64,000 nucleotides of DNA from Candidatus Binataceae bacterium (GTDB taxonomy: Bacteria; Desulfobacterota; Binatia; Binatales; Binataceae). The stretch lies in contig CAWBLQ010000003.1 in the NCBI GenBank assembly GCA_963789715.1, positions 523,916 to 587,915 of the forward strand. Reading direction: 5' to 3'. Below the pieces are notes generated by a model. The model saw only the letters and a program-made list of their open reading frames with translations. It was not told the DNA's origin and made no database searches. Of the stretch, positions 28,291-46,554 are shown in pieces. The position numbers and the translations under genes were made by a program. Every line of letters begins with the position of its first letter. Position 1 is the stretch's first letter.

Positions 28291-28294
28291 ACCG

Positions 28295-30523
28295 TTATGG
28301 CAGACAGACGGCGTGCGCAGGCTTTTGCTTGAGGCAGGCGACCAGCGGAGTCAGGACCGGGCGCGCCGCGCCGACGATCTCGGCCACGGTGTAGGCATTC
28401 GCCACCCAGACGTTGCCGGCAGCGTCGATTGCTACGCCGTCGGGGAAGTTGAAGGCTCCGATCGGAGCGAAATTGCCGGCCAGGCCGCCGCTGGAAGTCA
28501 GCTCCGTCACGCTGTCTTCGGAGTTCGTCACCCAGGCGTTGCCCTCGGCGTCGATTGCCACGAAGCCCGGACTGTCGAACCCAGCGCCAGCGGGAGCGAA
28601 ATTGCCGGCGAGGTCGCCGCTGGAGGTCACCTCTGTCACCGTGTTGCCGCCTTCGTTCGCCACCCAGGCATTCCCTCCCGCATCGATGGCCACGCCGCCC
28701 GGCCCGTCTAAGTCCGTGGAGAAAGGTTCGCCTACGATGCCGCCGCTGGAGCTCAAAATGGTCAGGCTGTTGGCGAGGATGTCCGTCACCCAGACGTTGC
28801 CGAAGGCGTCGATTGCCACGAACTGCGGCGCCTGGAAGTTGCCGGGAACGAAATTGCCGGCCAGGCTTCCGCTGGAGGTCAACTCGGTTACGCTTCTGCC
28901 GCCCAGGTTCGTCACCCAGGCGTTGTTGGCGGCGTCGATTGCCACCTGGATCGGGGACTCGAAGTTGGCGCCGCTCGGAGCGAAGTTGCCAACCAGACCG
29001 CCGCTGGAGTTCAACTCGGTCACGGTATCGCCGGAGTAGTTGGTCACCCAAACGTTGCCGTCGGCGTCGATCGCCACGCCGTTGGGTCCGCTGAAGTTGG
29101 CGCCGCTGGGAGCGAAGTTGCCGACCAGGCCGCCGCTGGAGTTCAACTCGGTCACGGTATCGCCGTGGTAGTTGGTCACCCAAACGTTGCCGGCGGCGTC
29201 GATTGCCAGGAAGCTCAACCCGTTGAAGTTGGCGCCGCTGGGATCGAAATTGAGCGCTATCTCCCAGCCGTCGGGCGCTTTGCTCAGATTGGGCGTGTAC
29301 GGCGGAGAAACGCCTTGAAGGGCAAACAGCGTAGCGACATTCGCGACGGGCTCGGTCGCCATTGCGTGTGCCGCCCCAAGCGTGGTGGCGCTGCCGCCGG
29401 TGTTGCTCAGCAGCGTGGTGCACGCGCTCGACGACGGTCCCGAACTCTCCACGCAGGCCGCCAGGATGTTGGCAATCGTATCCAGCCGCTCCAGGCCGTC
29501 GCAGTTGACCGGCGGTGAAAGGCCGGTGCAGCTCGCCTCGGTTGCGCCCTGATTGCTCCAGAAGCTCGCTGGCGCGCCGCTCACGGTGTCAACCAGATTC
29601 ACCTCCGCCTGGTTGAACGCATTGGCAAGGCCGGTCGCGTTGCTCGCGGGCGCACCGATGACCTGGCCGGTCGAGTCGGTGAACTGGGCCAGCGCCCACT
29701 CGCCCGCAACTGTCGTCTGCTCGTTGACGATGGTGCTCGTGACAATGGTGAAGATACTGCTGCATTTGCCTACCGTCGCCATCATCATCAGGCTGCTGTT
29801 GCTGCCCTGGCCGGCGTTGCCGCCCTGAGCGGTCAGATAAACCTCGTCCTGGGAGCTCTGTGCAGGACAGACCGCTTGGATAGTGAAGCGGCCGTCATCA
29901 GCGCTGGTCGTCGCGCCCAACTGGATCGCACCCGTTCCATAGCCCGTGCCTGCCAACCACATCGCCACGCTGGAGTTGGATACGGGATTGCCGCCGCTTG
30001 TTACCTGCCCGGAGAGCAACGCTTTGGGCGTTGGTGTTACGGTCGGCGTAGCGGTCGCAGTCGCCGTCGGGGTCGGGTTCTTCTGCGTGGCGCTCCCTTT
30101 TAGACCGACGGTAGCCGAGCTCGCACCGCTGGTCGCGTTACTGGTGATGCCGATGGTCCCGTCTTCGTTCTTGCCGGGTCCCTGAGGGATGAACTCAACG
30201 TTAACCTGCTGGCTCATCGAGCCCGCAATCGTGAGCGTGCCGCCCGCGGGAGAAATCGCGGGCGGGGATAGGATCACGTAGTTTTTGGCGTCGGTGGGTG
30301 CGCCGACGGTTACCTCCAACGGCAGCGTGCCTTTGTTACTGATACTGAAATGCTGGGTCTCGTTGAATTTTCCCTTGTCGATATCGACGCTGTAGCTCAA
30401 CGACTTGGGCGAGACAGAAAGTTTGCTTACTGCTGGCTTGCTGTCGGACGACGCAGCTTGAACCGACGCCGGGCGCACAAACGGGCCCAGGAAAAACAGC
30501 ACGGAGAAACTCAGAGCAGCCAT
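28295..30523 (-). CDS. Secreted NHL-repeat beta-propeller protein, paralog A (short TPTATATATPTVTPTP linker)
   Basis: Signal peptide MAALSFSVLFFLGPFVRPASVQA. Ig-like N-domain (KLSVSPKSLSYSVDIDKG...), Cys-rich middle domain, then about 9 NHL-like repeats (..AIDAAGNVWVTNY.GDTVTELNSSGGLVGNF..). Conserved C-terminal tail ..ACLKQKPAHAVCLP. Confidence 0.8.
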   Translation of the reverse strand: MAALSFSVLFFLGPFVRPASVQAASSDSKPAVSKLSVSPKSLSYSVDIDKGKFNETQHFSISNKGTLPLEVTVGAPTDAKNYVILSPPAISPAGGTLTIAGSMSQQVNVEFIPQGPGKNEDGTIGITSNATSGASSATVGLKGSATQKNPTPTATATATPTVTPTPKALLSGQVTSGGNPVSNSSVAMWLAGTGYGTGAIQLGATTSADDGRFTIQAVCPAQSSQDEVYLTAQGGNAGQGSNSSLMMMATVGKCSSIFTIVTSTIVNEQTTVAGEWALAQFTDSTGQVIGAPASNATGLANAFNQAEVNLVDTVSGAPASFWSNQGATEASCTGLSPPVNCDGLERLDTIANILAACVESSGPSSSACTTLLSNTGGSATTLGAAHAMATEPVANVATLFALQGVSPPYTPNLSKAPDGWEIALNFDPSGANFNGLSFLAIDAAGNVWVTNYHGDTVTELNSSGGLVGNFAPSGANFSGPNGVAIDADGNVWVTNYSGDTVTELNSSGGLVGNFAPSGANFESPIQVAIDAANNAWVTNLGGRSVTELTSSGSLAGNFVPGNFQAPQFVAIDAFGNVWVTDILANSLTILSSSGGIVGEPFSTDLDGPGGVAIDAGGNAWVANEGGNTVTEVTSSGDLAGNFAPAGAGFDSPGFVAIDAEGNAWVTNSEDSVTELTSSGGLAGNFAPIGAFNFPDGVAIDAAGNVWVANAYTVAEIVGAARPVLTPLVACLKQKPAHAVCLP

Positions 30524-30594
30524 TGACCTCCATTTTGAATCCGGGTTCACACTCGCATCCAATCTGCCGACGCGGTTCGATATTCCATCACGAT

Positions 30595-33045
30595 CTAGGG
30601 CAGACAGACCGCGTGCGGCGGCTTTTGTTTGAGGCATGCCATCAGCGGTGTCAGGACCGGGCGCGCCGCGCCGACGATCTCGGCCAAGCTGCTGCCGTTT
30701 CCGTTCGTCACCCAGACGTCGCCGGCGGCGTCGATTGCCACGCCTTGCGGGCCGTCGAAGGTGGCGCTGGTAGAGACGGCGTCGTCGGCAGCGAAGTTGG
30801 CGGCCAGGGCGCCGCTGGAGGTCAACTCGGTCACAGTGCCTGTACTGCCAGGACCGCCTTCGTGATTCGCCACCCAGACGTTGCCGGCGGAATCGATTGC
30901 GAGGCTGTACGGGCCGTCGAAGTTGGCGCCAATGGGAGTGAAGTTGCTGGCCGAGGCGCCGCCGGAGGTCAACTCGGTCACGCCGTCGCTAAGATTCGTC
31001 ACCCAGGCGTTGCCGGTGGCGTCGATTGCCACTCCGTCTGGGCGGTCGAAGTTGGCGCCGCTGATCGAGTTGTTGAAGTTACCCGCAAAGGCGCCGCTGG
31101 AGGTCAACTCGGTCACGCTCTTGCCGCCAAAGTTCGGCACCCAGACGTTCCCGGCAGCGTCGATTGCTACGCCTTGCGGGCCGTCGAAGTTGGCGCTTCC
31201 GGGAGCGAAGTTACCGGCAAGCGTGCCGGCGGAGGTCAACTCGGTCACGCTATTGCTGCCAAAGTTCGGCACCCAGACGTCGCCGGCGGCGTCGATTGCC
31301 ACGCTGGACGGCTCATCGATCGAACTGGTGAAGTTACCGGCCAGGGAGCCGCTGGAGGTCAATTCGGTGACGCTGGTACCGTTAGAGTTCGCCACCCAGG
31401 CGTTGCCGTCGGCGTCGATGGCCACAATTATCGGAGCGTCGAAGTTGCCGCCTCCGATGAAGTTACCCACCAAGGCGCCGCTGGAGGTCAACTCGGTCAC
31501 GCTATTGCCGGCAATGTTCGCCACCCAGGCGTTGCCGGCGGCGTCGATTGCCACGCCGAAGGGTGAGTTGAAGCTGGCGCCCATCTGATTGAAATTGAGC
31601 ACGATCTCAAAACCGTCGGGCTGAAGGCCCAGATCGGGGGTGAAAGGAGAACCGCTGTTAAGCGCAAATAGCGCAGTTACATGCGCGACGGGCTTGGTCG
31701 CCATTGCGTGCGCCGCCGCCAGCGTGGTGCTGCCGCCCGTGTTGCTCAGCAGCGTGCTACACGCGTTCGACGACGGTCCCGAACTCTCCACGCACGCGGC
31801 CAGGATGTCGGCGATCGTGTCGAGCCGGTCCAGGCCGTCGCAGTTCACCGGCCCTAGACTGCCAGTGCAGGTCGCCGCAGTCGCGCCCTCGCTACTCCAG
31901 AAGTTCGCCGGCCCGCCGCTCACGATGTCTGCCAGATTGGCCTGCGCCTGCGCGGCCGCATTGCCAATGCCGGTCGCGTTGCTCACCGGCGCACCGATGA
32001 ACTGGCCCGTCGAGTCGGTGAACTGTGCCAGCGCCCACTCGGCGGCCACTGTGGTCAACTCGTTGATCGTCACCGACGCGGGAATGGCGTTGGACATCCC
32101 GGCGACACCCATCAGACCGATTGCCGTGTTGCTCCCGGACCCGCCGTTCCCGCCAAGCGCGACGAGGTAGAGGACGGTGGGCGTAGCCGGCGGGTCGAAG
32201 CCTATCGTAAAGTTGCCACTGGAATTGGTGGTTGTGCTCGCCAGAGCTCCGGCACCGGCGCCATAAGCTGTTCCTGCTTCATAGATCGTCACCGCTGCGC
32301 CCGAGACTGGGCCGAGCCCTCCTTGCACTGTCCCCGAAAGAAAGTTGGTAGGGCTGCCGGTGGCCGTCGGCGTCGGAGTGATGCTTGGCGTAGGCGTCGC
32401 GGTTGCAGTCGCTGTGGCAGTCGCGGTCGCCGTGGCATTCGTGGTCGCCGTGGCAGTCGCGGTCGCCGTGGCAGTCGTCGTCGGCGTGGCCGTGGCACCC
32501 GTCGTCGGCGTCGCCGTGACAGTCGCTGTCGGCGTGGCAGTCAGGGTGGGGGTCGGCTTCTTCTGCGTGGCGCTGCCATGCAGATTGACGGTTGCCGAGC
32601 TCTTCCCGCTGGTCGCGTCGCTGGTGATGGATATGGTCCCGTCTACGTTCTTGCCGGGTCCGTGGGGGGTGAACACAACGTCCACGATGAGGATGTTGTT
32701 GCTGCCCTTGGCTTTGCCAGAAATCGCGGTCTCGCCGCCGCCCGACGTGATGACGTAGTCGGAGTTTGAGGGCGAATTGACGGTTACGTCCAGCGCTAAC
32801 GTCCCAGCGTTCGTGATGGTGAAATGCTTGCTCTCGGAGAATATGCCCTTGTCGATATCGACGCTGTAGCTCAGCGTCGTGGGTGAAACGGAAAGTTTGC
32901 TTACGGCCGTCTTGATGTCGGGCGACGCGTCGTCACCCGATTGCGCCAACGCCGGAAGCGCAAATGCGGTCAACAGGAACAGGAGCGAGAAACTAAGCGT
33001 GCCGATCGGCCGCGCGAACAACTTAATGCGCATCATAACCCTCAC
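30595..33045 (-). CDS. Secreted NHL-repeat beta-propeller protein, paralog B (about 70-aa Thr/Ala/Pro linker)
   Basis: Same layout as 28295-30523. Linker is TLTATPTATVTATPTTGATATPTTTATATATATATTNATATATATATATATPTPSITPTPTATGSP. Tail is ..EIVGAARPVLTPLMACLKQKPPHAVCLP. Confidence 0.8.
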   Translation of the reverse strand: MRVMMRIKLFARPIGTLSFSLLFLLTAFALPALAQSGDDASPDIKTAVSKLSVSPTTLSYSVDIDKGIFSESKHFTITNAGTLALDVTVNSPSNSDYVITSGGGETAISGKAKGSNNILIVDVVFTPHGPGKNVDGTISITSDATSGKSSATVNLHGSATQKKPTPTLTATPTATVTATPTTGATATPTTTATATATATATTNATATATATATATATPTPSITPTPTATGSPTNFLSGTVQGGLGPVSGAAVTIYEAGTAYGAGAGALASTTTNSSGNFTIGFDPPATPTVLYLVALGGNGGSGSNTAIGLMGVAGMSNAIPASVTINELTTVAAEWALAQFTDSTGQFIGAPVSNATGIGNAAAQAQANLADIVSGGPANFWSSEGATAATCTGSLGPVNCDGLDRLDTIADILAACVESSGPSSNACSTLLSNTGGSTTLAAAHAMATKPVAHVTALFALNSGSPFTPDLGLQPDGFEIVLNFNQMGASFNSPFGVAIDAAGNAWVANIAGNSVTELTSSGALVGNFIGGGNFDAPIIVAIDADGNAWVANSNGTSVTELTSSGSLAGNFTSSIDEPSSVAIDAAGDVWVPNFGSNSVTELTSAGTLAGNFAPGSANFDGPQGVAIDAAGNVWVPNFGGKSVTELTSSGAFAGNFNNSISGANFDRPDGVAIDATGNAWVTNLSDGVTELTSGGASASNFTPIGANFDGPYSLAIDSAGNVWVANHEGGPGSTGTVTELTSSGALAANFAADDAVSTSATFDGPQGVAIDAAGDVWVTNGNGSSLAEIVGAARPVLTPLMACLKQKPPHAVCLP

Positions 33046-33204
33046 TCAGCCGACGACGTTAATTCTCGCAGACCCGAGCCTAATTAGCTCAAATCAGTCT
33101 TTTCGCGCAAGTCCGACCGAGCTGTGCTTCCCCGAGTAGCATCCCAAACTGATGAGAGTACTGCTGCAGGAATTCTGGCGCTGCGTATCCGCGCGAAGTG
33201 GAGC

Positions 33205-33786
33205 CTAGCTGCAGGAGGGGCCGACGAATCGCCAATTCGCGACGTGTGCGCCGTTCACCCCCTTCATCATGCCGGACAATTCGCGGCCGTCGTCGGAGAG
33301 GATCAAGTCGGCTTCGGGGGAAGCCGGATTCGCGGAGTTCATTCGCAGCGCAATGACCCTTCCTTTGGCGGTTCCGGTTCCAACGGCCCTCAGCCGGCCA
33401 GTCGCCGCTGCGTAGGTGGTGACGGTCAGCTCGTGGCCGGTCTGTTTTATCAGATGGCAATTCGACAAGTGGTCGCGCCACGCGCCGGTTAAATTCCTGG
33501 GCCCTGGCACGGCGGCGACGACGATGGCGCGAGCATCCCCGCCGCTCGCCGGCAGGTCCGCGGCGGCACGAGTATCTATCGCCGCCAGTTGGCCGGTCTC
33601 GTCACGCAGACGCATCGGGGCGCGAGCTCTTGCTTCGATGCCCGCTCTCAGGCGCGAGTGGTTTCCGAGATACCCCGTCTCGTGGAGCACGCCGATCAAG
33701 CCTGCGGCGGCGGTGAGCGCGGTCGCCAGCCCGCTGAACAGGGTCGGCATCATGTGCCGGAGTCCGACTTTGTCGTTATCCCCCAT
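33205..33786 (-). CDS. Hypothetical membrane-anchored protein
   Basis: N-terminal TM (PTLFSGLATALTAAAGLIGVL). No motif recognised. Lies downstream of 33901-34548 on the same strand. Confidence 0.4.
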   Translation of the reverse strand: MGDNDKVGLRHMMPTLFSGLATALTAAAGLIGVLHETGYLGNHSRLRAGIEARARAPMRLRDETGQLAAIDTRAAADLPASGGDARAIVVAAVPGPRNLTGAWRDHLSNCHLIKQTGHELTVTTYAAATGRLRAVGTGTAKGRVIALRMNSANPASPEADLILSDDGRELSGMMKGVNGAHVANWRFVGPSCS

Positions 33787-33900
33787 CCGGCCCGTCCTTG
33801 CCTCAAGATAAGTACGACGGACGAATCTTAAGGTAACGGACGGGAGCGCATCAAGCGCGCGGCACGATTGAGTTGAGCAGCCGCAGCGGAGGCGGACGGC

Positions 33901-34548
33901 TTAGCGCACGCGTCGCGCCGGTCTGACTTTGAGGTGGCGGGTGCTTCTGCGGGACTTGACGTACATGACAACTGCTACGAATCCGATGAACAGAATTTCC
34001 CACCAGAGCAGCACATTGGCCTGGTCGAGATGGCTGTACCACGTATTCGCGGGAGGCGCCTGTGCGGCAGGCGAGCCGATGGTGCTCATGAAGTTGTCAC
34101 GCCATCGGGACATCGCGATCACACCATTCCAGATCAGGCCCGCGACCAGCACCATCGACCAGAACAGAATACCGAACTGCTCGGGCATGCGGCGGCGCAC
34201 GATGCCCTCAAGCGAAGCCGGTTCGGTCACAATCGCGGGTGCGATAGGAGCCGCGACGCGGCGGAAATCCGGGGTCGGGGCTTCCGAGTGATCGGCGGGA
34301 GGCGCGGCCGGCCGAGGGACGCGGGGCGCATGACCGGGGTCGCCAGCCTCGCGAATCTGGCGCAGGATGAAAAGCATATCCTGCTTGCAAGTCAGGGTTC
34401 CCAACAGCGCGCATTTCGACAGCGCCTCGAGTTCCTTAGGGGTAATCCTGAGACGCTCGATCAGTTCGCGATCGTTTCGAATCTGATCGAGGATCGCTTG
34501 TTCTTCCCGCGGGGCGGGGATCGAATGGCCCTGGAGTTCGCCTTTCAT
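33901..34548 (-). CDS. Hypothetical membrane protein (cytoplasmic N-domain plus two C-terminal TM helices)
   Basis: Two hydrophobic helices (FGILFWSMVLVAGLIWNGVIAM, LLWWEILFIGFVAVVMYV) and a basic C-terminus. Confidence 0.45.
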   Translation of the reverse strand: MKGELQGHSIPAPREEQAILDQIRNDRELIERLRITPKELEALSKCALLGTLTCKQDMLFILRQIREAGDPGHAPRVPRPAAPPADHSEAPTPDFRRVAAPIAPAIVTEPASLEGIVRRRMPEQFGILFWSMVLVAGLIWNGVIAMSRWRDNFMSTIGSPAAQAPPANTWYSHLDQANVLLWWEILFIGFVAVVMYVKSRRSTRHLKVRPARRVR

Positions 34549-34812
34549 GGGGTCGAATTTTTACGCTGGAGCACCGCATAAAGCAAGACTAAAGGAGACA
34601 TGAGATATATAGGATATTAGAACATCTATAAGAGACGAGAAAAGAAGCAATAGATAAAGCAAACAGTACGACTTATCTACCTACTGTATGTTTCAGCGGG
34701 CGAAACAGTAACGAAACTCTACTTTTCGTATGGCATGGAGTGGGCGCGGCCGGCATCGCGGCTCCATCGGTGAACTCTACCGCAGCGATCGGCGCTTACA
34801 GATGATATGGAC

Positions 34813-35847
34813 TTAAACGGCAGCCAGGCGTTTCAGGCTGTCGGATTCGCCAATCGCGACGAGCAAGTCGTCGGGCTCAATCCGCGTTTCGGGAGCAGGA
34901 ATCATTTCGAGCTTTTCGTCGTTGCGCTTCATCGCCACGATCCGAAGCCGCGGATTCTCGCGTTCCACTGCCGCGATTGTCTTGCCGGCCGCTGGGCTTT
35001 CCGGCGAGATCCTGATTTCCTCCAGATCGACCTCAGACTCACGGCCTGGTACCGACAGTTGCAGAAAATCGACGACCGACGGACGCAGGATGCTCGCCGC
35101 GATTCTCATCCCGGCCCATTGATAGGCCGCGACTACCTGGTCCGCTCCCGCTAACTTCAACCGCCGCAACCCCGCATCTGAGTCGCCACGGGCATAGATT
35201 AGAATCTTCGGATTTTTCTCGCGCGCTGAAAGCGTGATGTACACGTTGTCCGCATCAGATCCGGTGGCGACGATTATCGCGCGGGCGGAATTGGTCCCGG
35301 CGTCCTCGAGCACTGAATCCGCCAGCGCCGATCCAATAATGTGCAACGCGCCGACGCTGTCCAGGTCGGCTTGCTTGGCGGGATCCGCCTCGATCACCAC
35401 CATCGGCACCGTGTTGCGAGCAAGCTCTTCGACAACCGCGCGGCCGAAACGGCCGAAGCCGCACACGATGACATGCCCCTGGAGATTGTGAATTTTGCGA
35501 TTCATTGCGCTCTTCCCGAGAAACTCTCTAAGGCGCCCCTCAACCACCAGTTCCCCGATTACCGAAAACAGGTAAATCGCGCTGCCTACACCTGTGACTA
35601 TCAGCCCGATTGTGAAAAGACGACCGGCCGGGCTGAGCGGTTTTACCTCACCAAAACCGACCGTCGAGATGGTGATGACGGACATGTAGAAGGCGTCGAG
35701 AACTGACCAGTGCTCGATCAGCATGTAGCCGGCGGCGCCTATCACGGTCATCAGGGCGACCAAAAAGACCGCGAGCGCGAATCTGCGAGTTGGGGTCATC
35801 CCGATGGAGGCAGCAGCTTTCCCTTGAAGGTTTCGGCGACTCTGCAC
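34813..35847 (-). CDS. Two-TM K+ channel with cytoplasmic RCK (TrkA-N plus TrkA-C) domains (MthK/Kch-like)
   Basis: Selectivity filter TISTVGFGE between two TM helices. HVIVCGFGRFGRAVVEEL is the Rossmann GxGxxG of RCK_N. The C-terminus is a TrkA-C domain. Confidence 0.8.
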   Translation of the reverse strand: MQSRRNLQGKAAASIGMTPTRRFALAVFLVALMTVIGAAGYMLIEHWSVLDAFYMSVITISTVGFGEVKPLSPAGRLFTIGLIVTGVGSAIYLFSVIGELVVEGRLREFLGKSAMNRKIHNLQGHVIVCGFGRFGRAVVEELARNTVPMVVIEADPAKQADLDSVGALHIIGSALADSVLEDAGTNSARAIIVATGSDADNVYITLSAREKNPKILIYARGDSDAGLRRLKLAGADQVVAAYQWAGMRIAASILRPSVVDFLQLSVPGRESEVDLEEIRISPESPAAGKTIAAVERENPRLRIVAMKRNDEKLEMIPAPETRIEPDDLLVAIGESDSLKRLAAV

Positions 35848-36038
35848 TCTACATCATAATCTGCATAGTCTGCTGCCTTGACGGTTGTCCTTCGGGGCGC
35901 CCTCGCCGTGGCGCCTGCGCTCATTGTGCTTCCGCATATCGAATGGCGCGACCGGATACACAATCACCACTGGATGCTGGATATCGCCTGTAGCCCCGGC
36001 ACGTTTGGCCGGCGGATTCCCTCACCGTCGCGGAGCCC

Positions 36039-36455
36039 TTAGGGGTTCATGATCTGGCTGGCGTCGGCGACGACGATTAAAAATGCTCTGAGCAGATCGG
36101 TTGTAGTGACGATGCCGACCAGCTTTCCGTCGGCGACGATCGGCAGTCCGCCGATCTTGTGTTTCAGCATCAGGCGCGCCGCGTCTTCCGCCGTATCATG
36201 CGGCGTGACGGTGACAAGCGCTGTGCGCATAGCCGCGTTCACGCGCGTCGATTCCAGAAAGCCCGAGTATTTGTGCAGGTCGCGTTCAGTCAGGATGCCG
36301 ACGAGTCGCCCGTCCTCGACCACCGGCACACGCCTGAAGTGACCGGCGTCCATGATGCTTTTTGCCCTCGACAAATTATCGTGCGGATGGATCGTTACCG
36401 GGTCCGAAGTCATAAAATTAACAATCTGCATGGTTTTGTTCTCCGTGGCGGTCAA
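36039..36455 (-). CDS. CBS-domain pair protein
   Basis: Two CBS motifs (MTSDPVTIHPHDNLSRAKSIMDAGHFRRVPVVEDGRLVGILTERDL... and ...LMLKHKIGGLPIVADGKLVGIVTTTDLLRA). Confidence 0.8.
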   Translation of the reverse strand: MTATENKTMQIVNFMTSDPVTIHPHDNLSRAKSIMDAGHFRRVPVVEDGRLVGILTERDLHKYSGFLESTRVNAAMRTALVTVTPHDTAEDAARLMLKHKIGGLPIVADGKLVGIVTTTDLLRAFLIVVADASQIMNP

Positions 36456-36648
36456 CTTGATCAGACTGCAATTCGCTTGCCATCAGGCTGACGCGTTTAT
36501 CGTGCCCGTTAGCCTGCATTCAAAATTTGCTCGCTGGTGCGATCGGATACAGATCCGCCTGGCAGCTCTCGAAAACCTTTACCCGGCCAGTGGCACGGCA
36601 TTCGTCATTCGAATCAAGCTGCGCGTGAGTGGCGCACCTTTAAACAAT

Positions 36649-36688
36649 GCCCCGGCCGGGAGTCGAACCCGGACTTGAAATTCCGGAG
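36649..36688 (-). repeat. Direct repeat of the 3' 40 nt of tRNA-Arg(CCG), the distal att site of the integrated island
   Basis: Reverse complement CTCCGGAATTTCAAGTCCGGGTTCGACTCCCGGCCGGGGCA matches tRNA positions 32-72 (CTCCGGAACCTCAAGTCCGGGTTCGATTCCCGGCCGGGGCA) at 38 of 41. There is no 5' half and no CCA, so it is a fragment and not a tRNA gene. Confidence 0.6.
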
Positions 36689-37024
36689 TGCTGCACGACT
36701 GGATCACCAAAAGCCGTTATCGGCCTTTCATAAAGGCTTTTCCGCCGCCGCAGGTTACGATAGTGGCGATCTTCGGCCCCTGTCCACACCAGTTCGGGCA
36801 CGGTCGGGGCACGGTTTCTTACTCACGGAATATTTTTTCTAACAGATAGTCTCCATCGGGCGTAACGCTAAAGGCTCGGCGACCCGCCCCGTGTCGCGCC
36901 CGACGCACCCCGCATCGAGCCCTGAAAGCGGCGCACGCGGCGCGACGCGCGGGTTGTCGGCGCGTTTGCGGGCGACGGGCCGGCGCCCACCACAGGGGCG
37001 TTTTGCGCTACAGGGCTGGTTGGA

Positions 37025-37291
37025 ATGAAAACCAAGAAGGATGAACGACAGGAGCGGCTCGATTCGCAGGGCCAGCTGACCCGCATCGAGGATATGCCGA
37101 AGCTGTCGCCGCGCGACGCGGCTTTTTTCCGCAAGCTTGGCCAGTATATTGACAGTTGCCGCGTGCTCGGCAAGGACGATGGGTTGCTTGATCCGGATAC
37201 CGCCGATATGCTGCGCGAGTCCGGCGTGCTTGTGCTCGACGAAGAGATCGCGCCGCGGCCGCCGGTAGCAGTCCATCGGAGGAAGAAGTAG
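37025..37291 (+). CDS. Small hypothetical protein (88 aa, charged)
   Basis: Protein-like composition (MKTKKDERQERLDSQGQLTRIEDMPKLSPRDAAFFRKLGQYIDS...). Competes with a minus-strand ORF at 36839-37339. Weak call. Confidence 0.25.
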   Translation: MKTKKDERQERLDSQGQLTRIEDMPKLSPRDAAFFRKLGQYIDSCRVLGKDDGLLDPDTADMLRESGVLVLDEEIAPRPPVAVHRRKK

Positions 37292-37816
37292 GGCAGGCGA
37301 GATGAACTCGTGCCCGGCCAGTTCATCTTTAATCCTCAATGTCGAGCCTAGTTAAAACCCGATCCGCTTGTGTGGGCTAACTGCTACTCGCTCAGCTCGT
37401 CGAGCAGCGCCTTGGCGTCTTTTCAGGTCGGGGTGCCTTCGATGAACCAGTTGTGGATTTACGTGAGCATCGCGCCGCGGTTCGTCGGATTGCCCCTGTT
37501 TCGCCGGCATCCGTGCGAGGTTGGTGCTAGCACGTTGGACTCTGAACTCAAACTGTGTGCTTGCAAACCGCCTGGTGCCGCGTCCGGCGCCACAGTTGCG
37601 CAATAGCATCGCGGGTCAGCTTAGAAGCTTCGCGCATCGCGGGAAAGGCGACCCGCCGCTTGAGGGCGACGACCGGCACCTGTCGCTTTTCTATCAGCTG
37701 GAAAGTGCGAGATGATAGGCGGAGTACCAAGTCGGTCTCGTGGGAACCGGTTTGGACTTGCGGAAGAAAATGGATATACGCTACTTGCTTAGTAATCGCG
37801 GAGTTAAGGTCGGCAA

Positions 37817-40800
37817 TTGCGACGTTGGATGCGTTTCAAGTCGTTCGCGCGGTTCATAGCCATCCTGAGCTTGTTGCTCTCGTTTGTGTTGGCCGCGTCT
37901 ACGCGTCCCGCGCTGTCGCAGTCGAACGACGATTCGTCAGCTCATAACAAGACGGCCGTAAGTAAACTTTCTGTCTCGCCCAAAACGCTGACCTACAACG
38001 TCAATATCGACAAGGGTCAATTCAGCGAGACCCAGCATTTCACTATCAAGAACAACGGGACGCTGCCGTTGCTCGTAACCGTCGGCGCGCCCAGCGACGC
38101 TGAAAATTACGTGATTATATTCCCGTCCGCGATTTCACCCGTGGGCGGAACGCTCACGATTCCGGGTTCGAAAAGCCAGCAGGTGGAGGTTGAGTTCATC
38201 CCCCACGGACCCGGCAAGAACGTAGACGGGACTATCGCCGTCGGCAGTAACGCTACGAGCGGGCCAAACTCGGCGACCGTCAATTTGCACGGGAACGCCA
38301 CGCAGAAGAAGCCGACCCCGACTGCAACGGCGACGGCAACTGCGACCGCGACGACAACCGCAACCGCGACGCCTGCTACAGCGACTTCGACTGCCACAGC
38401 GACGGCCACTGCGACGGCGACAGCCACCGCGACGGTTACTCAGACGGCGACCGCAACGGCGACCGCGACGACAACCGCAACCGCGACGACAACCGCTACA
38501 GCGACTTCGACTGCCACAGCGACGGCCACTGCGACGGCGACAGCCACCGCGACGGCTACTCAGACGGCGACCGCAACCGCCACAGCAACATCGACTGCCA
38601 CGGCGACATCGACAGCCACGGCGACATCGACAGCCACGGCGACCACGACTGCCACGGCGACCGCGACGACAACCGCAACCGCGACGCCGACTGCTACAGC
38701 GACTTCGACTGCCACAGCGACAGCCACCGCGACGGCTACTCAGACGGCGACCGCAACCGCCACAGCAACATCGACTGCCACGGCGACATCGACAGCCACG
38801 GCGACCACGACTGCCACGGCGACCGCGACGACAACCGCAACCGCGACGCCGACTGCCACAGCGACGGCCACTGCGACGGCGACAGCCACCGCGACGGCTA
38901 CTCAGACGGCGACCGCAACCGCCACAGCAACATCGACTGCCACGGCGACATCGACAGCCACGGCGACATCGACAGCCACGGCGACCACGACTGCCACGGC
39001 GACATCGACAGCCACGGCGACCGCGACTGCCACGGCGACCGCGACTGCCACGGCGACCGCGACAGCCACCGCGACCGCAACCGCGACGCCTACTCCAACC
39101 CTCACTCCGACGCCGACGGCCACCGGCAGCCCTACGAACTTTCTTTCGGGGACGGTGCAAAGCGGGCCCGGCACAGGCATCCCGGTCTCGGGCGCAGCGG
39201 TGACGATCTATGAGGCAGGAACAGCTTACGGCGCCGGTGCCGGAGCTCTGGCAAGCACAACCACCAATTCCAGTGGCAACTTTACGATAGGCTTCGATCC
39301 GCCGGCTACACCCACGGTCCTCTACCTCGTCGCGCTCGGCGGGAATGCCGGGTCCGGGAGCAACACGGCGATCGGGCTGATCGGCGTAGCGGGAAAGTCC
39401 AACGCCATTCCCGCGTCGGTCACGATCAACGAGCTGACGACGGTGGCAGCCGAGTGGGGGCTGGCGCAGTTCACCGACTCGACGGGCCAGTTTATCGGTG
39501 CGCCCTCGAGCAACGCCACCGGCATTCGCAATGCGGCCGCGCAGGCGCAGGCAAATCTGGCTGACATCGTGAGCGGCGGGCCGGCGAGCTTCTGGAGTAG
39601 CGAGGGCGCGACTGCGGCAAGCTGCATTGGCAGTACAGGGCCGATCAACTGCGACGGCCTGGACCGGCTCGACACGATCGCCAACATCCTGGCCGCGTGC
39701 GTGGAGAGTTCGGGAGCGTCGTCGAACGCATGCAGCACGCTGCTGAGCAACACGGGCGGCAGCACCACGCTCGCGGCGGCGCACGTAATGGCGACCAAGC
39801 CGGTCGCGCATGTAGCTACGCTGTTCGGCCTTCTAAGCGGTTCTCCGTTCACCCCCGTTCTGGGCCTTCAGCCCGACGGCTGGGAGATCGTGCTCAATTT
39901 CGCACCGAGCGGCGCCAGCTTCAATTCTCCCTTCGGCGTGGCAATCGACGCCGGCGGCAACGCCTGGGTGGCGAACCTTGCCGGCAATAGCGTGACCGAG
40001 TTGACCTCCAGCGGCGCCTTGGTGGGTAACTTCCTCGGAGGCGCCAACTTCAACTCTCCGGTAGTTGTGGCAATCGACGCCTTGGGCGACGCTTGGGTGG
40101 CGAACGAAGGCGGTACCAGCGTCACCGAGTTGACCTCCAGCGGCGCTCTGGCCGGTAACTTCAACAACTCGATCAGCGAGCCGTCCAGCGTGGCAATCGA
40201 TTCCGCCGGCGACGTCTGGGTGCCGAACCTTGGCAGCAATAGCGTGACTGAGTTGACCTCCGGCGGCGGGTTGGCCGGTAACTTCACCAACTCGATCAGC
40301 GGAGCCAACTTCGACGGCCCGCAAGGCGTAGCAATCGACGCTGCCGGCGACGTCTGGGTGCCGAACTTTGACGGCAACAGCGTGACCGAGTTGACCTCCG
40401 GCGGTGCCCTGGCCGGTAACTTCGCTCCCAAAGGCGCCAACTTCGACCGCCCGGACGGCGTGGCAATCGACGCCGCCGGCAATGCCTGGGTGACGAATCT
40501 TAGCAACAGCGTGACCGAGTTGACCTCCAGCGGCGCCTTGGCCGGTAATTTCAACAACTCGATCAAAGGTGCCAACTTCGACGGCCCGTACGGCGTGGCA
40601 ATCGATTCCGCCGGCAACGCCTGGGTGCCGAACTTTCAAGGCAATAGCGTGACCGAGTTGACCTCCAGCGGCGCCCTGGCCGGCAACTTCGCTGCCGACG
40701 ACGCCGTCTCTACCAGCGCCACCTTCGACGGCCCGCAAGGCTTGGCAATCGACGCCGCGGGCGACGTCTGGGTAACGAACGGAGACGGCGCCGGCAGTGT

Positions 40801-40891
40801 GGCCGAGATCGTAGGCGCGGCGCGCCCGGTCCTGACGCCGCTGATGGCCTGCCTCAACCAAAAGCCGCCGCACGCAGTCTGTCTGCCGTAG
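37817..40891 (+). CDS. Secreted NHL-repeat beta-propeller protein, paralog C (island-borne, about 260-aa Thr/Ala/Ser/Pro linker)
   Basis: Signal peptide MRRWMRFKSFARFIAILSLLLSFVLAASTRPALSQS. Ig-like domain, (TA)n linker from about residue 175 to 435, Cys-rich domain, about 11 NHL-like repeats. Tail is ..EIVGAARPVLTPLMACLNQKPPHAVCLP. Confidence 0.8.
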   Translation: MRRWMRFKSFARFIAILSLLLSFVLAASTRPALSQSNDDSSAHNKTAVSKLSVSPKTLTYNVNIDKGQFSETQHFTIKNNGTLPLLVTVGAPSDAENYVIIFPSAISPVGGTLTIPGSKSQQVEVEFIPHGPGKNVDGTIAVGSNATSGPNSATVNLHGNATQKKPTPTATATATATATTTATATPATATSTATATATATATATATVTQTATATATATTTATATTTATATSTATATATATATATATATQTATATATATSTATATSTATATSTATATTTATATATTTATATPTATATSTATATATATATQTATATATATSTATATSTATATTTATATATTTATATPTATATATATATATATATQTATATATATSTATATSTATATSTATATTTATATSTATATATATATATATATATATATATATPTPTLTPTPTATGSPTNFLSGTVQSGPGTGIPVSGAAVTIYEAGTAYGAGAGALASTTTNSSGNFTIGFDPPATPTVLYLVALGGNAGSGSNTAIGLIGVAGKSNAIPASVTINELTTVAAEWGLAQFTDSTGQFIGAPSSNATGIRNAAAQAQANLADIVSGGPASFWSSEGATAASCIGSTGPINCDGLDRLDTIANILAACVESSGASSNACSTLLSNTGGSTTLAAAHVMATKPVAHVATLFGLLSGSPFTPVLGLQPDGWEIVLNFAPSGASFNSPFGVAIDAGGNAWVANLAGNSVTELTSSGALVGNFLGGANFNSPVVVAIDALGDAWVANEGGTSVTELTSSGALAGNFNNSISEPSSVAIDSAGDVWVPNLGSNSVTELTSGGGLAGNFTNSISGANFDGPQGVAIDAAGDVWVPNFDGNSVTELTSGGALAGNFAPKGANFDRPDGVAIDAAGNAWVTNLSNSVTELTSSGALAGNFNNSIKGANFDGPYGVAIDSAGNAWVPNFQGNSVTELTSSGALAGNFAADDAVSTSATFDGPQGLAIDAAGDVWVTNGDGAGSVAEIVGAARPVLTPLMACLNQKPPHAVCLP
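38320..39115 (+). repeat. About 800-bp coding tandem-repeat array (6-nt ACx-GCx units nested inside higher-order ~160-190-nt units) encoding the Thr/Ala linker of paralog C
   Basis: Blocks such as ..gcgacggctactcagacggcgaccgcaaccgccacagcaacatcgactgccacggcgacatcgacagccacggcg.. recur at least three times. The protein shows ..ATATQTATATATATSTATATSTATATSTATATTTATAT.. repeated. Confidence 0.8.
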
Positions 40892-41310
40892 ATCGCCGCC
40901 TCGGGGATCATGCCGCGAAGCCCTGCGTCGCCACCTCAACCGCACCGGATTACACATCCTGTGTACCGCGCAAAGCGCCCGATTTCGTTACGAAACCACC
41001 CCTCTGTGCCTGTTTTGTGTCTCTTCATTTAAAGGGTACAAGGACGGCGCGAGCCTGATGGGGTTTTATGTGCCCACAGGCCGCGCCACCCCGCCCAAGG
41101 CGCTAACACCCCCGCACCCGGCCGAATGCGCGGCGCGGCGCGACGCGCGCGAGTCTCGGCCGGTTTGCGGGCTCGAACTCTGCATTTGCAGAGACTCGCT
41201 GTCGGTGCTAGTCCGATTTAGGATTGAAAAAGGAAATTCCGGTTCAAAGAACTGCGCTAATCTGCCATCGGTGGGCAGGCTAGCCACCTCGCCTCGCCAC
41301 GGGGGACGCT

Positions 41311-42630
41311 ATGGACTACTTTGCTAAGGGCCTGTTCCGTCTCGCGTTGTTCGCATTTTCCATCCTGTTCTGTCTGGGAAGTCACGTCCGAACTGCGGAT
41401 GCTGCGAGTTGTACAGTTCCTCCTGGTACAGTCGTTACTCAAACCGACATTCTCGGAAACTCTTGTTCCGCAACTCAAACAACCGCGAGTACGGCTACGG
41501 CAAGCGCGGGTGGCCTTGACAATACAGCGACGTCAACCGCGACTACCGACAGCACTGCTACCTCCGAAGCGGCTGGCTCGGATAATAACGCTGCGTCAAC
41601 CGCGACTACCGACAGCACTGCTACGGCAAACGCGACTGGCACCGGAAACGCGGCGACGTCGGCCGCGACTACCGACAGCACTGCTACGTCCACCGCGTCT
41701 GGCGGGGGCAATACGGCGACGTCGACCGCGACTACTGATGGCTCGGCCACTTCGTCAGCCACCGGTATTGACAGCACGGCAACCGCCACGGCCACCGACA
41801 GCACCGCTATCGCTACCGCCGCCGACGCAGGCACCGCAACGTCGACCGATAGCACCCCAGGTACGACTGTCTGTACATTTGCCGGCGACGCCTCATCGAC
41901 CGCAACCGGCAGCGACGTGAACGCCCCCAGTTGCGTAGGCGATGACGCTGTAGTCGTTAGTCCCGCGGGCATCTGCGGCCCGGTTGCTACAAGCCCCTGC
42001 GCCTCGTTTTTGCCCCCGGCAAGCGGGGCCGGCATCGAGCTGCAGGATTATTTCAGCAACGCCAACACTACCGGAGGCCAGGGCTTCGTCAATATCACTT
42101 CTCCCTTCGAGGGCAATCAAACGGCCACCAACCCCGTGGTTCAAGAGGGTGAGATGTGCGCGATGATTTACGTGTTGAACACCGACCAGGCTGTGGAGGC
42201 CTGCTGCGGATGTCCGATCACCGCCGACGGTCTGCTGACCCTGAGCATCAGCGGCAATTTGGCGCCGAACCCGGTGGCTTCAGGCAGGATTCTCCATGAC
42301 GGCTCGATCCGTATCCTCTCGACCGCTATCAATTCCGCTATCACCGGGCTGACGCTGCCCAGGGGCGTGAATTGCGACGCGGTCACCGGCGCGTGCTGCG
42401 ATCCTACCGCGGAGGGCGGCGCCAAACCGCTGGTTCCCCAGCTTGAGCTGGCCGCATGGGCAAACCACGTGCAAAATACCCAGATCACCGAAGCGGTGTT
42501 CCAGACCACTCCCACTCCCGAGGCCGCCGGCGACCTCACTAGTTTGCCGTCCGCGTGCGCTTTCGCCGTAGAGACGGGCAGCGGCCAGGGAGTGTGTACC
42601 TGCGGCACCGGCGGATTCGGCATCGAGTAA
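41311..42630 (+). CDS. Secreted protein with a 13-aa periodic Ser/Thr/Ala repeat region and a Cys-rich C-terminal domain (island cargo)
   Basis: Signal peptide MDYFAKGLFRLALFAFSILFCLGSHVRTADA. At least 8 repeats of ~(N/G)xA(A/T)STATTDSTATS. The C-terminal ~200 aa contain CTFAGD, CVGDD, CGP..SPC, EACCGCP, CDAVTGACCDP, CAFA, CTCGTGG (about 16 Cys). Confidence 0.65.
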   Translation: MDYFAKGLFRLALFAFSILFCLGSHVRTADAASCTVPPGTVVTQTDILGNSCSATQTTASTATASAGGLDNTATSTATTDSTATSEAAGSDNNAASTATTDSTATANATGTGNAATSAATTDSTATSTASGGGNTATSTATTDGSATSSATGIDSTATATATDSTAIATAADAGTATSTDSTPGTTVCTFAGDASSTATGSDVNAPSCVGDDAVVVSPAGICGPVATSPCASFLPPASGAGIELQDYFSNANTTGGQGFVNITSPFEGNQTATNPVVQEGEMCAMIYVLNTDQAVEACCGCPITADGLLTLSISGNLAPNPVASGRILHDGSIRILSTAINSAITGLTLPRGVNCDAVTGACCDPTAEGGAKPLVPQLELAAWANHVQNTQITEAVFQTTPTPEAAGDLTSLPSACAFAVETGSGQGVCTCGTGGFGIE

Positions 42631-42788
42631 CCGGCATCAAGTGCGTCATCCAGAGTAGATGGCGCTCTGTCGGCGGCGGCGATTGCCGTATGCTGGTCCA
42701 AAGTAGCAATCGCAATTAGTAGGACCGCAGATAGGGTTCCCCAGCGGGCCGCCTCCTCGCGCTTGCTACCGAGCACCCAAGAGCGCAA

Positions 42789-43607
42789 CTAGTTGCGCTC
42801 TCGGACCTCGTTAAACGCCGCGATCATAGCTTTGCGGTAGCCCATGAGCTTTGCCGCGTCGCTCTTCTCCTGCCGCACCTCGCGGTTGAAGGCCTTGATG
42901 TTGAGCACGCTGTCCATCGCATCGCGCACCAGTTTTTGCAAATTCTCGGGCGCCAGCGCCTCTACCTCATAGACCGTCTGGTCTGGGCCATGGATCTTTT
43001 TGAAGCGCTTGGCCTTTGTGTCATCTTTGCCGGGTTTAGTAAAAGATTTTGGCAGACGCAGGGAGCGAATCTGCTCCTGCGTAATCGCGACCTTGATTGG
43101 CACCAACCTCTCTGACCCGATCTCGAAGTCATCGCGCATCGAGCGCGCAAAACTCTCTGCAATATCCTCGCCGCTAGGATCGAAGTCGCTTACGATCAGC
43201 AGGACCAATTTTTCCTTGCCGCTTTCGATAAAACGCTGATGCATCTTGTACCTGGGTGGCAGCGATGAGTAGCCGCGGCCTGACCTCATCGGCACACAAA
43301 AATCCGCGGCCACCTGCTTGAGGATCTTCCAAACAAACTCCGGACGTGTGTCGTCGGCGATCGCATCCATCGGGATGATCCCTTGAATCCTAGCCGTGGT
43401 GGCGACCTTTGAAAGTTCCCGATAACTTTGGATCTTGTTGGCGTATCGTGTGGCGGGTCTCGATGCATGCCTGAGCGGTGGATCGTTCAGCAGGTTGTAG
43501 TGAATCTGCCGTAGCGAGACCGGCCAGTAATCGTTGAGAACCCCGTCTAGTATCTTGATGATGGCGTCCAACAGGGGCCGCTTGGCGTCGGTGATCCGGG
43601 CGCCCAT
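42789..43607 (-). CDS. Hypothetical island protein with a possible Toprim-like DxDxxG motif
   Basis: ..KLVLLIVSDFDPSGEDIAESF.. is a hydrophobic strand followed by D-x-D-x-x-G, as in Toprim domains. No other catalytic motif recognised. Weak call. Confidence 0.35.
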   Translation of the reverse strand: MGARITDAKRPLLDAIIKILDGVLNDYWPVSLRQIHYNLLNDPPLRHASRPATRYANKIQSYRELSKVATTARIQGIIPMDAIADDTRPEFVWKILKQVAADFCVPMRSGRGYSSLPPRYKMHQRFIESGKEKLVLLIVSDFDPSGEDIAESFARSMRDDFEIGSERLVPIKVAITQEQIRSLRLPKSFTKPGKDDTKAKRFKKIHGPDQTVYEVEALAPENLQKLVRDAMDSVLNIKAFNREVRQEKSDAAKLMGYRKAMIAAFNEVRERN

Positions 43608-45306: not shown

Positions 45307-45318
45307 TACGGAGAAGAT

Positions 45319-46384: not shown

Positions 46385-46479
46385 GCGCCAACCCAAACAA
46401 AAAGGGGCACGGTCGGGGCACGGTTTCGGCCTTTTGCCGGCGTGCCCCGAAAAATTATCCGCATGTTGTCGACAGTTTT

Positions 46480-46554
46480 TGGTGCCCCGGCCGGGAATCG
46501 AACCCGGACTTGAGGTTCCGGAGACCTCCGTGATGTCCTTTTCACTACCGGGGC
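46480..46554 (-). tRNA. tRNA-Arg (anticodon CCG), 72 nt plus encoded CCA
   Basis: Reverse complement GCCCCGG-TA-GTGA-AAAGGACA-TCAC-G-GAGGT-CTCCGGA-ACCTC-AAGT-CCGGG-TTCGATT-CCCGG-CCGGGGC-A-CCA folds into a canonical cloverleaf by eye. The anticodon loop is CT-CCG-GA. Confidence 0.8.

Follow-up and report, generated by a model that had tools for sequence, protein, structure and literature searches.

The window analyzed here, a 64,000-nucleotide stretch of DNA from a Candidatus Binataceae bacterium, carries three paralogous genes for predicted exported proteins with a seven-bladed NHL propeller, and the conserved tail at the C-terminal end of each is best read as a structural cap that is integral to this one propeller family and probably stapled by a disulfide, while a strand from the N-terminal side appears to close the propeller. 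The three open reading frames were found exactly where an earlier note on this DNA had placed them, and no other part of the window matched HMMs of the propeller, the helical domain, the beta-sandwich, the Ig domain, and the tail:

28295..30523, minus strand: gene 1, 742 amino acids from the ATG at 30523, encoding a seven-bladed NHL propeller plus tail
30595..33045, minus strand: gene 2, 816 amino acids, in tandem with gene 1 and of the same layout
37817..40891, plus strand: gene 3, 1024 amino acids, on a tRNA-Arg island, with the layout of genes 1 and 2

Pairwise alignment gave identities of 63% (genes 1 and 2), 65% (genes 1 and 3), and 81% (genes 2 and 3), as expected of the three-member paralog family that had been proposed. 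The N-termini of all three products read as Sec-type signal peptides, and export is predicted on that basis. The gene 1 reading frame stays open to 30637. Its ATG at 30523 is preceded by GGAGG 3 bases away, and an alternative GTG at 30550 provides a better charged n-region and agrees with the N-terminus of the homolog P0002; it is possible that gene 1 starts at this GTG rather than at the ATG. A related ENA contig that carries the homolog P0001 is 98.2% identical to the window, with 50 gaps over 20.8 kb.

Gene 3 had been described as island-borne, and a partial copy of a tRNA-Arg gene together with an adjoining integrase gene confirmed this:

36648..46554, no strand: integrative island of ~9.8 kb that carries gene 3, its ends being the partial tRNA copy and tRNA-Arg(CCG)
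36648-36688: 41-nt partial copy of the tRNA-Arg 3' half, 93% identical to 46483-46523
46480-46554, minus strand: tRNA-Arg(CCG), the other island end
45704-46384, plus strand: tyrosine recombinase (integrase) gene, adjoining tRNA-Arg
38313..39084, plus strand: tandem DNA repeats in gene 3, with 18-, 162-, and 180-nt periods, that code for its (Thr-Ala)n linker

The layout previously claimed for the family (signal peptide, Ig-like domain, Thr/Ala/Pro linker, Cys-rich domain, propeller, and tail) was recovered in all three proteins from the sequences and from an AlphaFold2 model of the gene 1 product (mean pLDDT of 92.7). Domain boundaries in gene 1 are listed here, and the equivalents in genes 2 and 3 are given alongside:

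30074..30442, minus strand: Ig-like beta-sandwich near the N-terminus of gene 1, residues 28-150, with the sandwich modeled at 34-146; equivalents at 32554-32916 (minus) in gene 2 and 37946-38314 (plus) in gene 3
29765..30022, minus strand: gene 1 second beta-sandwich, residues 168-253, without a Pfam match; equivalents at 32095-32364 (minus) in gene 2 and 39119-39397 (plus) in gene 3
29312..29764, minus strand: gene 1 helical Cys-rich domain, residues 254-404; equivalents at 31654-32094 (minus) in gene 2 and 39398-39838 (plus) in gene 3
28376..29257, minus strand: gene 1 NHL propeller, residues 423-716, 28 strands in seven blades; equivalents at 30676-31602 (minus) in gene 2 and 39890-40810 (plus) in gene 3
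28298..28375, minus strand: gene 1 tail GAARPVLTPLVACLKQKPAHAVCLP, residues 717-742, with Cys730 and Cys740, modeled as coil with a single helical turn at 728-731
30598..30675, minus strand: gene 2 tail, residues 791-816
40811..40888, plus strand: gene 3 tail, residues 999-1024

The Ig-like label of the N-terminal domain, which is present in only about 28% of aligned homologs, rests on the AlphaFold2 model and a sub-threshold Pfam HYDIN/VesB match (E = 0.0037), and should be taken as provisional. The linker that follows is short and modeled as disordered in gene 1 (residues 154-164), a Thr/Ala/Pro stretch of about 63 residues in gene 2 (165-227), and a (Thr-Ala)n stretch of about 270 residues in gene 3 (167-434). 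For the middle domains, the best Pfam match was DUF7356 at 0.07, and residues 162-404 searched against PDB sequences gave a best match at E = 0.89, leaving a region of ~240 residues without a Pfam model or a PDB sequence relative. Conservation within the family is highest in this region, which therefore merits a family definition of its own; the two top-conserved motifs, NEQTTVAxEWALAQF and VNCDGLERLDTIANILAACVESSG, both lie in the helical domain. Exactly six cysteines are shared by the three proteins, four in the helical domain, where 332/341 and 357/368 are the likely pairs in gene 1, and two in the tail.

The propeller itself was modeled with a pLDDT above 90 in gene 1, and Foldseek returned NHL and Vgb propellers (E about 1e-16). 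All three proteins passed the Pfam NHL cut-off of 20 (PF01436; 59.3, 54.1, and 44.3 bits for genes 1 to 3). The earlier note had counted 9-11 blades and taken their number to diverge; we instead observed seven AIDAxGNxWV motifs in each protein and 28 modeled propeller strands in gene 1, so that the blade number is constant at seven across the three genes. The blades are unusually similar to one another, with conserved D, W, and N residues recurring in every blade. Blade 7 of gene 1 has just three C-terminal strands in the model (697-699, 705-708, and 713-716), and the N-terminal strand 423-426 (EIALNF) agrees with the fourth-strand consensus LAGNF. Together these suggest a velcro strand supplied from the N-terminal side, and strand 423-426 appears to close the propeller by completing blade 7 with its fourth strand. 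The tail was also considered as the velcro strand and rejected, given that blade 7's third strand takes in only the first two tail residues and that closure appears to come from the 423-426 side.

We then turned to how strongly the tail is constrained. Any two paralogs share 88-96% identity over their final 26 residues, in keeping with the near-identical C-terminal end noted before, and among 717 windows of 26 residues across the three paralogs the tail ties with one helical-domain stretch as the best conserved. Such near-identity might have arisen as a by-product, through recent duplication or gene conversion: over their whole length genes 2 and 3 share 81% identity, and the gene 2 copy in the related ENA contig is nearer to window gene 3 (94.6%) than to window gene 2 (93.2%), a hint of paralog exchange or assembly mixing. 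However, tail codons differed in every paralog pair by 5-6 synonymous versus 1-3 non-synonymous changes, which argues for purifying selection and not recent gene conversion, and the tail is kept in distant homologs (40-60% identity) and in another phylum. We consider the by-product account extremely improbable; the synonymous excess bears out the earlier proposal in that selection acts on the tail itself.

In the model of the gene 1 protein, the tail in its context is an ordered coil with a helical turn (pLDDT of 95-97), and there is no beta structure past residue 716. The confidence for the tail was still 95-97 in a construct from which the middle domains had been removed (residues 405-742), whereas the pre-propeller linker 405-415, having lost its partner in the same construct, fell below 50 and served as an internal control. 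That the tail keeps its confidence without the middle domains suggests, from pLDDT and secondary structure, that it probably docks on the propeller, with the proviso that AlphaFold confidence for the tail may be alignment-driven.

To place the tail across the wider family, a 32-column tail profile was searched against 1.84 billion representative proteins (E ≤ 1e-3), and it returned only 96 matches. In every genuine match an NHL blade immediately precedes the tail, and all full-length ones also carry the beta-sandwich and helical domains. Co-occurrence with other domain types, for which an HMM search had been suggested, was thus not seen, and the tail is confined to this propeller family. The earlier note had offered as its own refutation a tail that is simply a velcro closure and occurs with one propeller type; the restriction to this propeller stands, and the velcro strand does not. 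The tail is internal in some subfamilies, where a T/A/P linker plus Ig domain, or a transmembrane helix, follows it. In this way the tail marks a domain boundary.

Family-wide, the tail keeps a G-x-A-x-P-V-x-T-P core and a terminal Pro, the latter being the last residue in 230 of 235 sequences. The Cys-x9-Cys spacing that had been called invariant holds in the three paralogs and not in the family at large, where 7, 8, 9, or 11 residues separate the cysteines and some relatives have no Cys loop, as in the Cys-free version PVKTPLIGPPQLP. Both tail cysteines are present in 93 of 103 homologs and both are absent in the other 10. In one Acidobacteriaceae subgroup, Asn/Asn replaces them in all eight members while the flanking VA_L and AV_xP are kept, a neat case of covariation between residues that are likely in contact. 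The covariation, the even number of cysteines, and the predicted export together point indirectly to a probable disulfide in the tail, which makes the "disulfide-locked" part of the earlier description plausible. Over the 103 homologs, conservation does not peak in the tail (mean column conservation of 0.67 for the tail versus 0.78 for the two helical-domain motifs). The near-invariant last Pro and the tied-top conservation of the tail among the paralogs go beyond what is plainly required of a passive cap.

The idea that the earlier note preferred, namely that a dedicated envelope machine recognizes the tail as a C-terminal signal for sorting, anchoring, or processing, draws on the tail's position nearly always at the extreme C-terminus, its near-universal last Pro, and its conservation across two phyla. 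Known sorting signals are portable, serve many different passengers, and are paired with a dedicated enzyme. Here, however, a single propeller family is the only passenger among the 1.84 billion representatives, and no conserved neighbor gene was seen among the four neighborhoods examined; likewise, no gene was shared between the window and those neighborhoods. The tail has neither a hydrophobic helix nor a basic cluster, is internal in several subfamilies, and is modeled as folded. Where a C-terminal membrane anchor is present, it is an extra transmembrane helix after the core (P0086 and P0120), and at least 28 relatives have an N-terminal lipobox-like motif, which suggests that these are lipoproteins anchored at the N-terminal end. 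An independent sorting or anchoring module is therefore not upheld, and we regard a dedicated-machine signal as highly improbable.

The same note had stated that the tail falls outside the PEP-CTERM, LPXTG, and T9SS CTD patterns, and this was borne out by NCBIfam searches and by the sequence. With the threshold relaxed to E ≤ 10, NCBIfam sorting-signal models gave no match to the C-terminal 60 residues of any of the three products, and a scan of the full-length proteins likewise gave none; the longest hydrophobic run in GAARPVLTPLVACLKQKPAHAVCLP is at most 6 residues, and PEP and LPXTG motifs are absent from it. A T9SS CTD was rejected as a candidate, with just 26 residues of coil and helical turn after the propeller and no model match. 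A portable C-terminal module was rejected as well, all genuine tail matches lying directly behind this NHL propeller.

Taken as a cap, the tail would work as follows. The protein would be exported via its Sec signal peptide, with the beta-sandwich, the helical Cys domain, and the seven-bladed NHL propeller as the core unit, and strand 423-426 would close the propeller by serving as fourth strand in blade 7. The tail starts right after the third strand of that blade, its Pro-rich extended G-x-A-x-P-V-x-T-P segment taking the place where a fourth strand would otherwise lie. A short loop would come next, which in Binataceae would be stapled by a Cys-Cys disulfide formed in the oxidizing envelope, and the chain would terminate in Pro. 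Such a cap may hold the closure region together and shield the end of the domain from proteolysis.

Alternatively, the tail could be a plug or lid that runs from the blade 7 rim over the propeller face and sits at the tunnel entrance or at a ligand or active site. It is well ordered, appears to stay with the propeller, and ties for top conservation among the paralogs, and its about 25 residues could span to the axis of a seven-bladed propeller if standard propeller geometry applies. However, what follows the core varies freely, with 7-11 residues between the cysteines, the Cys-free PVKTPLIGPPQLP, or a linker or transmembrane helix instead, and such freedom would not be expected of an element that fits precisely as a plug or in an active site; we judge the plug unlikely. 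Slightly less probable still is its more ambitious form, an undescribed envelope family in which the tail would be a disulfide-locked plug or lid at the tunnel and would form a ligand or catalytic site with the helical domain. Were the plug reading true, the multi-copy paralogs and the mobile island copy would diversify specificity. With the cap that we favor, the propeller may still bind a ligand, its specificity putatively set by variable loops before strand 1 and between strands 2 and 3 of each blade. Any function of the whole protein is a guess from resemblance, since no ligand, conserved neighborhood, or fold assignment for the helical domain was obtained.

Genes 1 to 3 are paralogs within a family of envelope proteins common to Binataceae (phylum Binatota) and Acidobacteriaceae. 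Three related exported propeller genes are a real, yet fairly ordinary finding, and their value is practical, lying in annotation; no new sorting or secretion mechanism is opened. These proteins are abundant in uncultured Binataceae and in soil Acidobacteriaceae and carry public labels such as "streptogramin lyase," "NHL repeat-containing protein," and "hypothetical protein." The G-x-A-x-P-V-x-T-P core, an optional Cys loop, and the terminal Pro offer a compact family signature and a marker for the end of the propeller. The family occurs in cultured Acidobacteriaceae (strain KBS 89), so that localization and function can be tested in the laboratory, and also in MAGs assigned to Granulicella, Edaphobacter, and Terracidiphilus. 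We found no paper tying NHL proteins of Binatia or Acidobacteria to such a tail, and the main genome paper on Binatota (PMC8262859) is silent on NHL, propeller, and secreted proteins.

Among known systems, the best fold match is the virginiamycin B (streptogramin B) lyase Vgb (PDB 2z2n, 2z2o, and 2qc5; PF24684), which is also seven-bladed (TM-score of 0.85-0.87 on the target). This match raises the reading that genes 1 to 3 encode secreted enzymes of the Vgb or SGL lactonase kind, with the tail as part of a catalytic propeller; gene 1 scores 82.9 bits against the Pfam Vgb lyase model (cut-off of 50), Pfam SGL gives 28-57 bits (cut-off of 26.3), and many relatives are named "streptogramin lyase" by JGI. 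However, gene 2 (47.9 bits) and gene 3 (no match at E ≤ 0.1) remain under the Pfam Vgb cut-off, the NCBIfam VgbA/VgbB models give 26-55 bits against a cut-off of 600, and sequence identity with Vgb amounts to 17-19%. The conserved D, W, and N recur from blade to blade, which is the mark of a structural repeat, not of one asymmetric active site. Vgb is a cytoplasmic enzyme of a single domain without signal peptide, extra domains, or tail, whereas the products of genes 1 to 3 are predicted to be exported. We hold the enzyme reading to be very unlikely, and the "streptogramin lyase" label on relatives would be an unsupported over-annotation.

The best PDB sequence matches are the extracellular sensor domain of the M. 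tuberculosis Ser/Thr kinase PknD (PDB 1rwi/1rwl; E = 7.6e-22) and, for the blade repeat, the "Pizza" designer propellers (E = 3e-29). Like PknD, the proteins here would be extracytoplasmic and have NHL-type blades that are highly alike among themselves, with the signature P-x-G-V-A-[IV]-D-x-x-G-x-V-W-V-T-[DN]. They have seven blades and are soluble or lipid-anchored, whereas PknD has six blades and a transmembrane kinase fusion, and lacks the beta-sandwich, the helical Cys domain, and the Cys-loop tail. No ligand is known for the PknD sensor.

With PEP-CTERM/exosortase, LPXTG/sortase, GlyGly-CTERM/rhombosortase, and T9SS CTD systems, the family shares a short conserved C-terminal signature on exported proteins; those signals, however, comprise a transmembrane helix and basic cluster, or a T9SS beta-sandwich of roughly 80-100 residues, and the tail here has neither. 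ScyF (NCBIfam NF035926), an exported NHL propeller, is the top NCBIfam match for all three genes at 41-63 bits, well under its cut-off of 350. Unlike genes 1 to 3, it ends in a true PEP-CTERM with motif, transmembrane helix, and basic tail, and it illustrates how an NHL propeller is equipped with a genuine sorting tail.

The ORF listing bore out the three paralogous genes for exported NHL propeller proteins that the earlier note had placed in the window:

28295-30523, minus strand: gene 1
30595-33045, minus strand: gene 2
37817-40891, plus strand: gene 3

Genes 1 and 2 are arranged in tandem. Homologue-built HMMs for the propeller, helical domain, beta-sandwich, Ig domain and tail (the conserved 26-residue C-terminal segment behind the propeller, with Cys730 and Cys740 in gene 1) matched all three ORFs, and the five models found no further family members in the window; the family here has three members. 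Pairwise protein alignment gave 63% identity between genes 1 and 2, 65% between genes 1 and 3, and 81% between genes 2 and 3. NHL repeats scored above the Pfam threshold in 3/3 proteins, with matches as well to SGL and Vgb_lyase, two kindred propeller families; Pfam returned only a weak HYDIN/VesB-like Ig match at the N-terminus and none for residues 150-420. On inspection, the N-termini of all three proteins read as Sec-type signal peptides: a charged start leads into a hydrophobic core and then a cleavage site resembling A-x-A. The proteins belong to the exported bacterial NHL propellers, an already known class. We counted seven AIDAxGNxWV motifs in every protein instead of the 9-11 blades first proposed, and six common cysteines, of which the helical domain contains four and the tail the other two. 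The linkers diverge as claimed (~17, ~63 and ~270 residues in genes 1, 2 and 3), the gene 3 linker being encoded by tandem DNA repeats at 38313-39084.

The true start of gene 1 is uncertain: the ATG at 30523 has GGAGG three bases upstream, whereas the GTG at 30550 would extend the protein with a charged n-region, consistent with how the homologue P0002 (88% identical) begins. Long ORFs of 347-558 residues (28143-29423, 30523-31566, 38135-39811 and 39833-40957) lie antisense to the stretches that encode the NHL repeats and Thr-Ala linker. Their translations are rich in Arg and Gly, and these ORFs are almost certainly not genes but a side effect of the GC-rich, repetitive coding sequence. Three genes from gene 1, 25899-26807 (minus strand) encodes a 302-residue protein with a single hydrophobic segment and a Gly/Tyr/Pro/Ser/Gln-rich low-complexity C-terminus, for which a Pfam search gave no match. 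We also observed that locus L001 (ENA ERZ25039496 contig_4448, carrying the homologue P0001) is 98.2% identical to window positions 18295-40259, with 50 gaps. Its gene 1 is 99.9% identical to that of the window; its gene 2 copy is 93.2% identical to window gene 2 and 94.6% to window gene 3, and gene calls on this contig are fragmented. This discrepancy may stem from paralogues being mixed when the long reads were assembled or polished, or from genuine conversion between strains.

An AlphaFold2 model of the gene 1 protein, built with 103 aligned homologues as input, was confident (mean pLDDT 92.7) and gave the following layout:

residues 34-146: Ig-like beta-sandwich
residues 154-164: disordered linker
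residues 168-253: second beta-sandwich
residues 254-404: helical domain
residues 423-716: propeller, 28 strands in seven blades

The C-terminal end contributes just three strands to blade 7 (697-699, 705-708 and 713-716). Strand 423-426 (EIALNF) fits LAGNF, the fourth-strand consensus of the other blades, and in the model is read as closing the propeller from the N-terminal side. The tail (717-742) was modelled as coil with a single helical turn at 728-731 and a pLDDT of 95-97; its RPVLT segment takes the fourth-strand position in the blade alignment, yet no strand was modelled there. Of the case that the earlier note had set against its own proposal, one part, a tail that is simply the velcro strand, is not what the model predicts. 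As an indirect probe of tail contacts, we modelled residues 405-742 alone. The pre-propeller linker, deprived of its partner, fell below a pLDDT of 50; the tail remained at 95-97, which points to predicted docking on the propeller, not on the middle domains.

Between paralogues, the last 26 residues are 88-96% identical, and the other domains 45-94%. Among 717 windows, that of the tail ranked joint first in conservation, level with a stretch of the helical domain; the strong conservation reported earlier therefore stands, but the tail is not alone in it. Each pair of paralogues differs in the tail at 5-6 synonymous and 1-3 non-synonymous codon positions, by which measure the tail peptide is under purifying selection. 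The mostly synonymous differences rule out simple recent copying of the tail between paralogues, and they contradict gene conversion as the explanation of tail identity, to which we give almost no credence.

A full-length search returned 726 relatives, nearly all ending in a tail of the same kind; those named were mostly Candidatus Binataceae. Scanning one genome per GTDB species gave 502 relatives. The best 80 belonged to Binataceae, often under the label 'uncultured delta proteobacterium', and to Acidobacteriaceae (among them MAGs assigned to Granulicella, Edaphobacter and Terracidiphilus, and the cultured strain KBS 89), commonly with multiple copies per genome. When a 32-column tail profile was searched against 1.84 billion representative proteins, just 96 matched at E <= 1e-3. 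Setting aside a number of short fragments and two false positives of low complexity, each match had an NHL blade directly upstream; every full-length match also had the beta-sandwich and helical domains, and none carried the tail on another passenger domain. The other part of the refuting case, a tail confined to this propeller type, is what this search showed.

The earlier note's suggestion that the tail could be a sorting or anchoring signal we regard as most unlikely. The tail has neither a hydrophobic helix nor a basic cluster, matches no NCBIfam sorting-signal model, and occurs with one passenger type. Several subfamilies have the whole Cys-loop tail at an internal position, with a Thr/Ala/Pro linker and then an Ig-like domain behind it, and other relatives add a transmembrane helix after the tail core, so the tail marks the end of a domain, not of the protein. 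Furthermore, at least 28 relatives bear an N-terminal lipobox-like motif (e.g. LAGCGG) and are therefore probably lipoproteins anchored at the end opposite the tail; the family would then comprise soluble and lipid-anchored forms. Four neighbourhoods shared no common partner gene.

Many relatives (P0007, P0021, P0041, P0051, P0072, P0088 and others) are without the N-terminal Ig domain and have a lipobox-like start followed by a Pro/Thr linker. In one Binataceae genome (L081/L082, 3635-7904), P0088 adjoins a ~1400-residue protein containing G8 and CEMIP beta-helix domains, as well as a protein whose glycoside hydrolase domains resemble those of glycogen-debranching enzymes; this possible polysaccharide context was not seen in the other neighbourhoods. 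In giant relatives of 975-1694 residues (L021, L040, L061, L073; P0199-P0201), the unit of beta-sandwich, helical domain and propeller is embedded in larger proteins; at the four L loci, the tail core (PVVTPLQA...) continues directly into long Pro/Thr linkers and more domains.

The tail core, E-[ILF]-[IV]-G-x-A-x-P-V-x-T-P, is general across relatives, and the sequence after it varies by lineage. The final Pro is present in 230 of 235 sequences and may limit exoproteolysis. Cys-x9-Cys, first described as invariant, is one of several spacings: 7 (47 cases), 8 (21), 9 (109) or 11 (17) residues separate the two cysteines, and Cys-free versions exist, among them the short PVKTPLIGPPQLP. In the Acidobacteriaceae tail VA-N-L...AV-N-[KLR]-P, both Cys positions are Asn in 8/8 cases with the flanks retained (TPIVANLLSPYGSHAVNKP; loci L057, L058, L065, L068, L070, L075, L077 and L079), and this paired replacement suggests contact between them. 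In the 103-sequence alignment, both tail cysteines were present in 93 sequences and both absent in 10, and the remaining Cys pairs were likewise present or absent together. For the tail pair, this supports a putative disulfide or, at a minimum, some contact. We consider it likely that the tail caps this propeller domain as an integral part of it and is probably stapled by the disulfide; a functional plug or lid of the propeller is the less likely alternative, with an outside chance.

Gene 3 is island-borne, as the earlier note held, within a ~9.8 kb element bounded by:

46480-46554: tRNA-Arg(CCG)
36648-36688: 41-nt partial tRNA copy

A tyrosine recombinase gene adjoins the tRNA and appears to be split between two ORFs that overlap in different frames (45319-45939 and 45704-46384), with Pfam Phage_integrase matching the second only (E = 1e-17). 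The split probably reflects a frameshift or decay of the integrase, or else an error in sequencing. Close to the two island ends are copies of a perfect 23-nt direct repeat, GGGCACGGTCGGGGCACGGTTTC (36796-36818 and 46405-46427). These copies break colinearity with the tRNA-derived repeat: the left one lies on the right-hand side of the tRNA copy, and the right one on the left-hand side of the tRNA. The repeat could be a recombinase arm site or the trace of a second integration event. Adjoining gene 3 on the island, 41311-42630 (plus strand) encodes a 439-residue protein that looks secreted; behind its signal peptide it has a region rich in Thr, Ala and Ser, which 63-nt tandem repeats at 41479-41793 encode, and its C-terminal half is Cys-rich; its sole Pfam match was a sub-threshold DUF6764.

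The middle domains and tail are not covered by Pfam or NCBIfam models, and we found no literature on this propeller family, its middle domains or its tail. The proteins form a new and clearly delimited member family whose proposed end cap is specific to it, and the value of defining it is chiefly in annotation. Variation in the propeller clusters in two loops of each blade, the one that precedes the first strand and the one that joins the second strand to the third; together with the likeness to the PknD sensor domain, this leads us to hypothesise that the propeller binds a ligand. An enzyme of the Vgb kind is improbable: NCBIfam Vgb models scored 26-55 bits against a cut-off of 600, and every blade of the propeller conserves the same residues, D, W and N. 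By Foldseek, the fold nearest to the gene 1 propeller is the 7-bladed virginiamycin B lyase (TM-score 0.85-0.87), with which it shares just 17-19% identity, followed by TRIM NHL domains; among proteins of solved structure, its nearest sequence matches are the Pizza designer propellers and the sensor domain of PknD.
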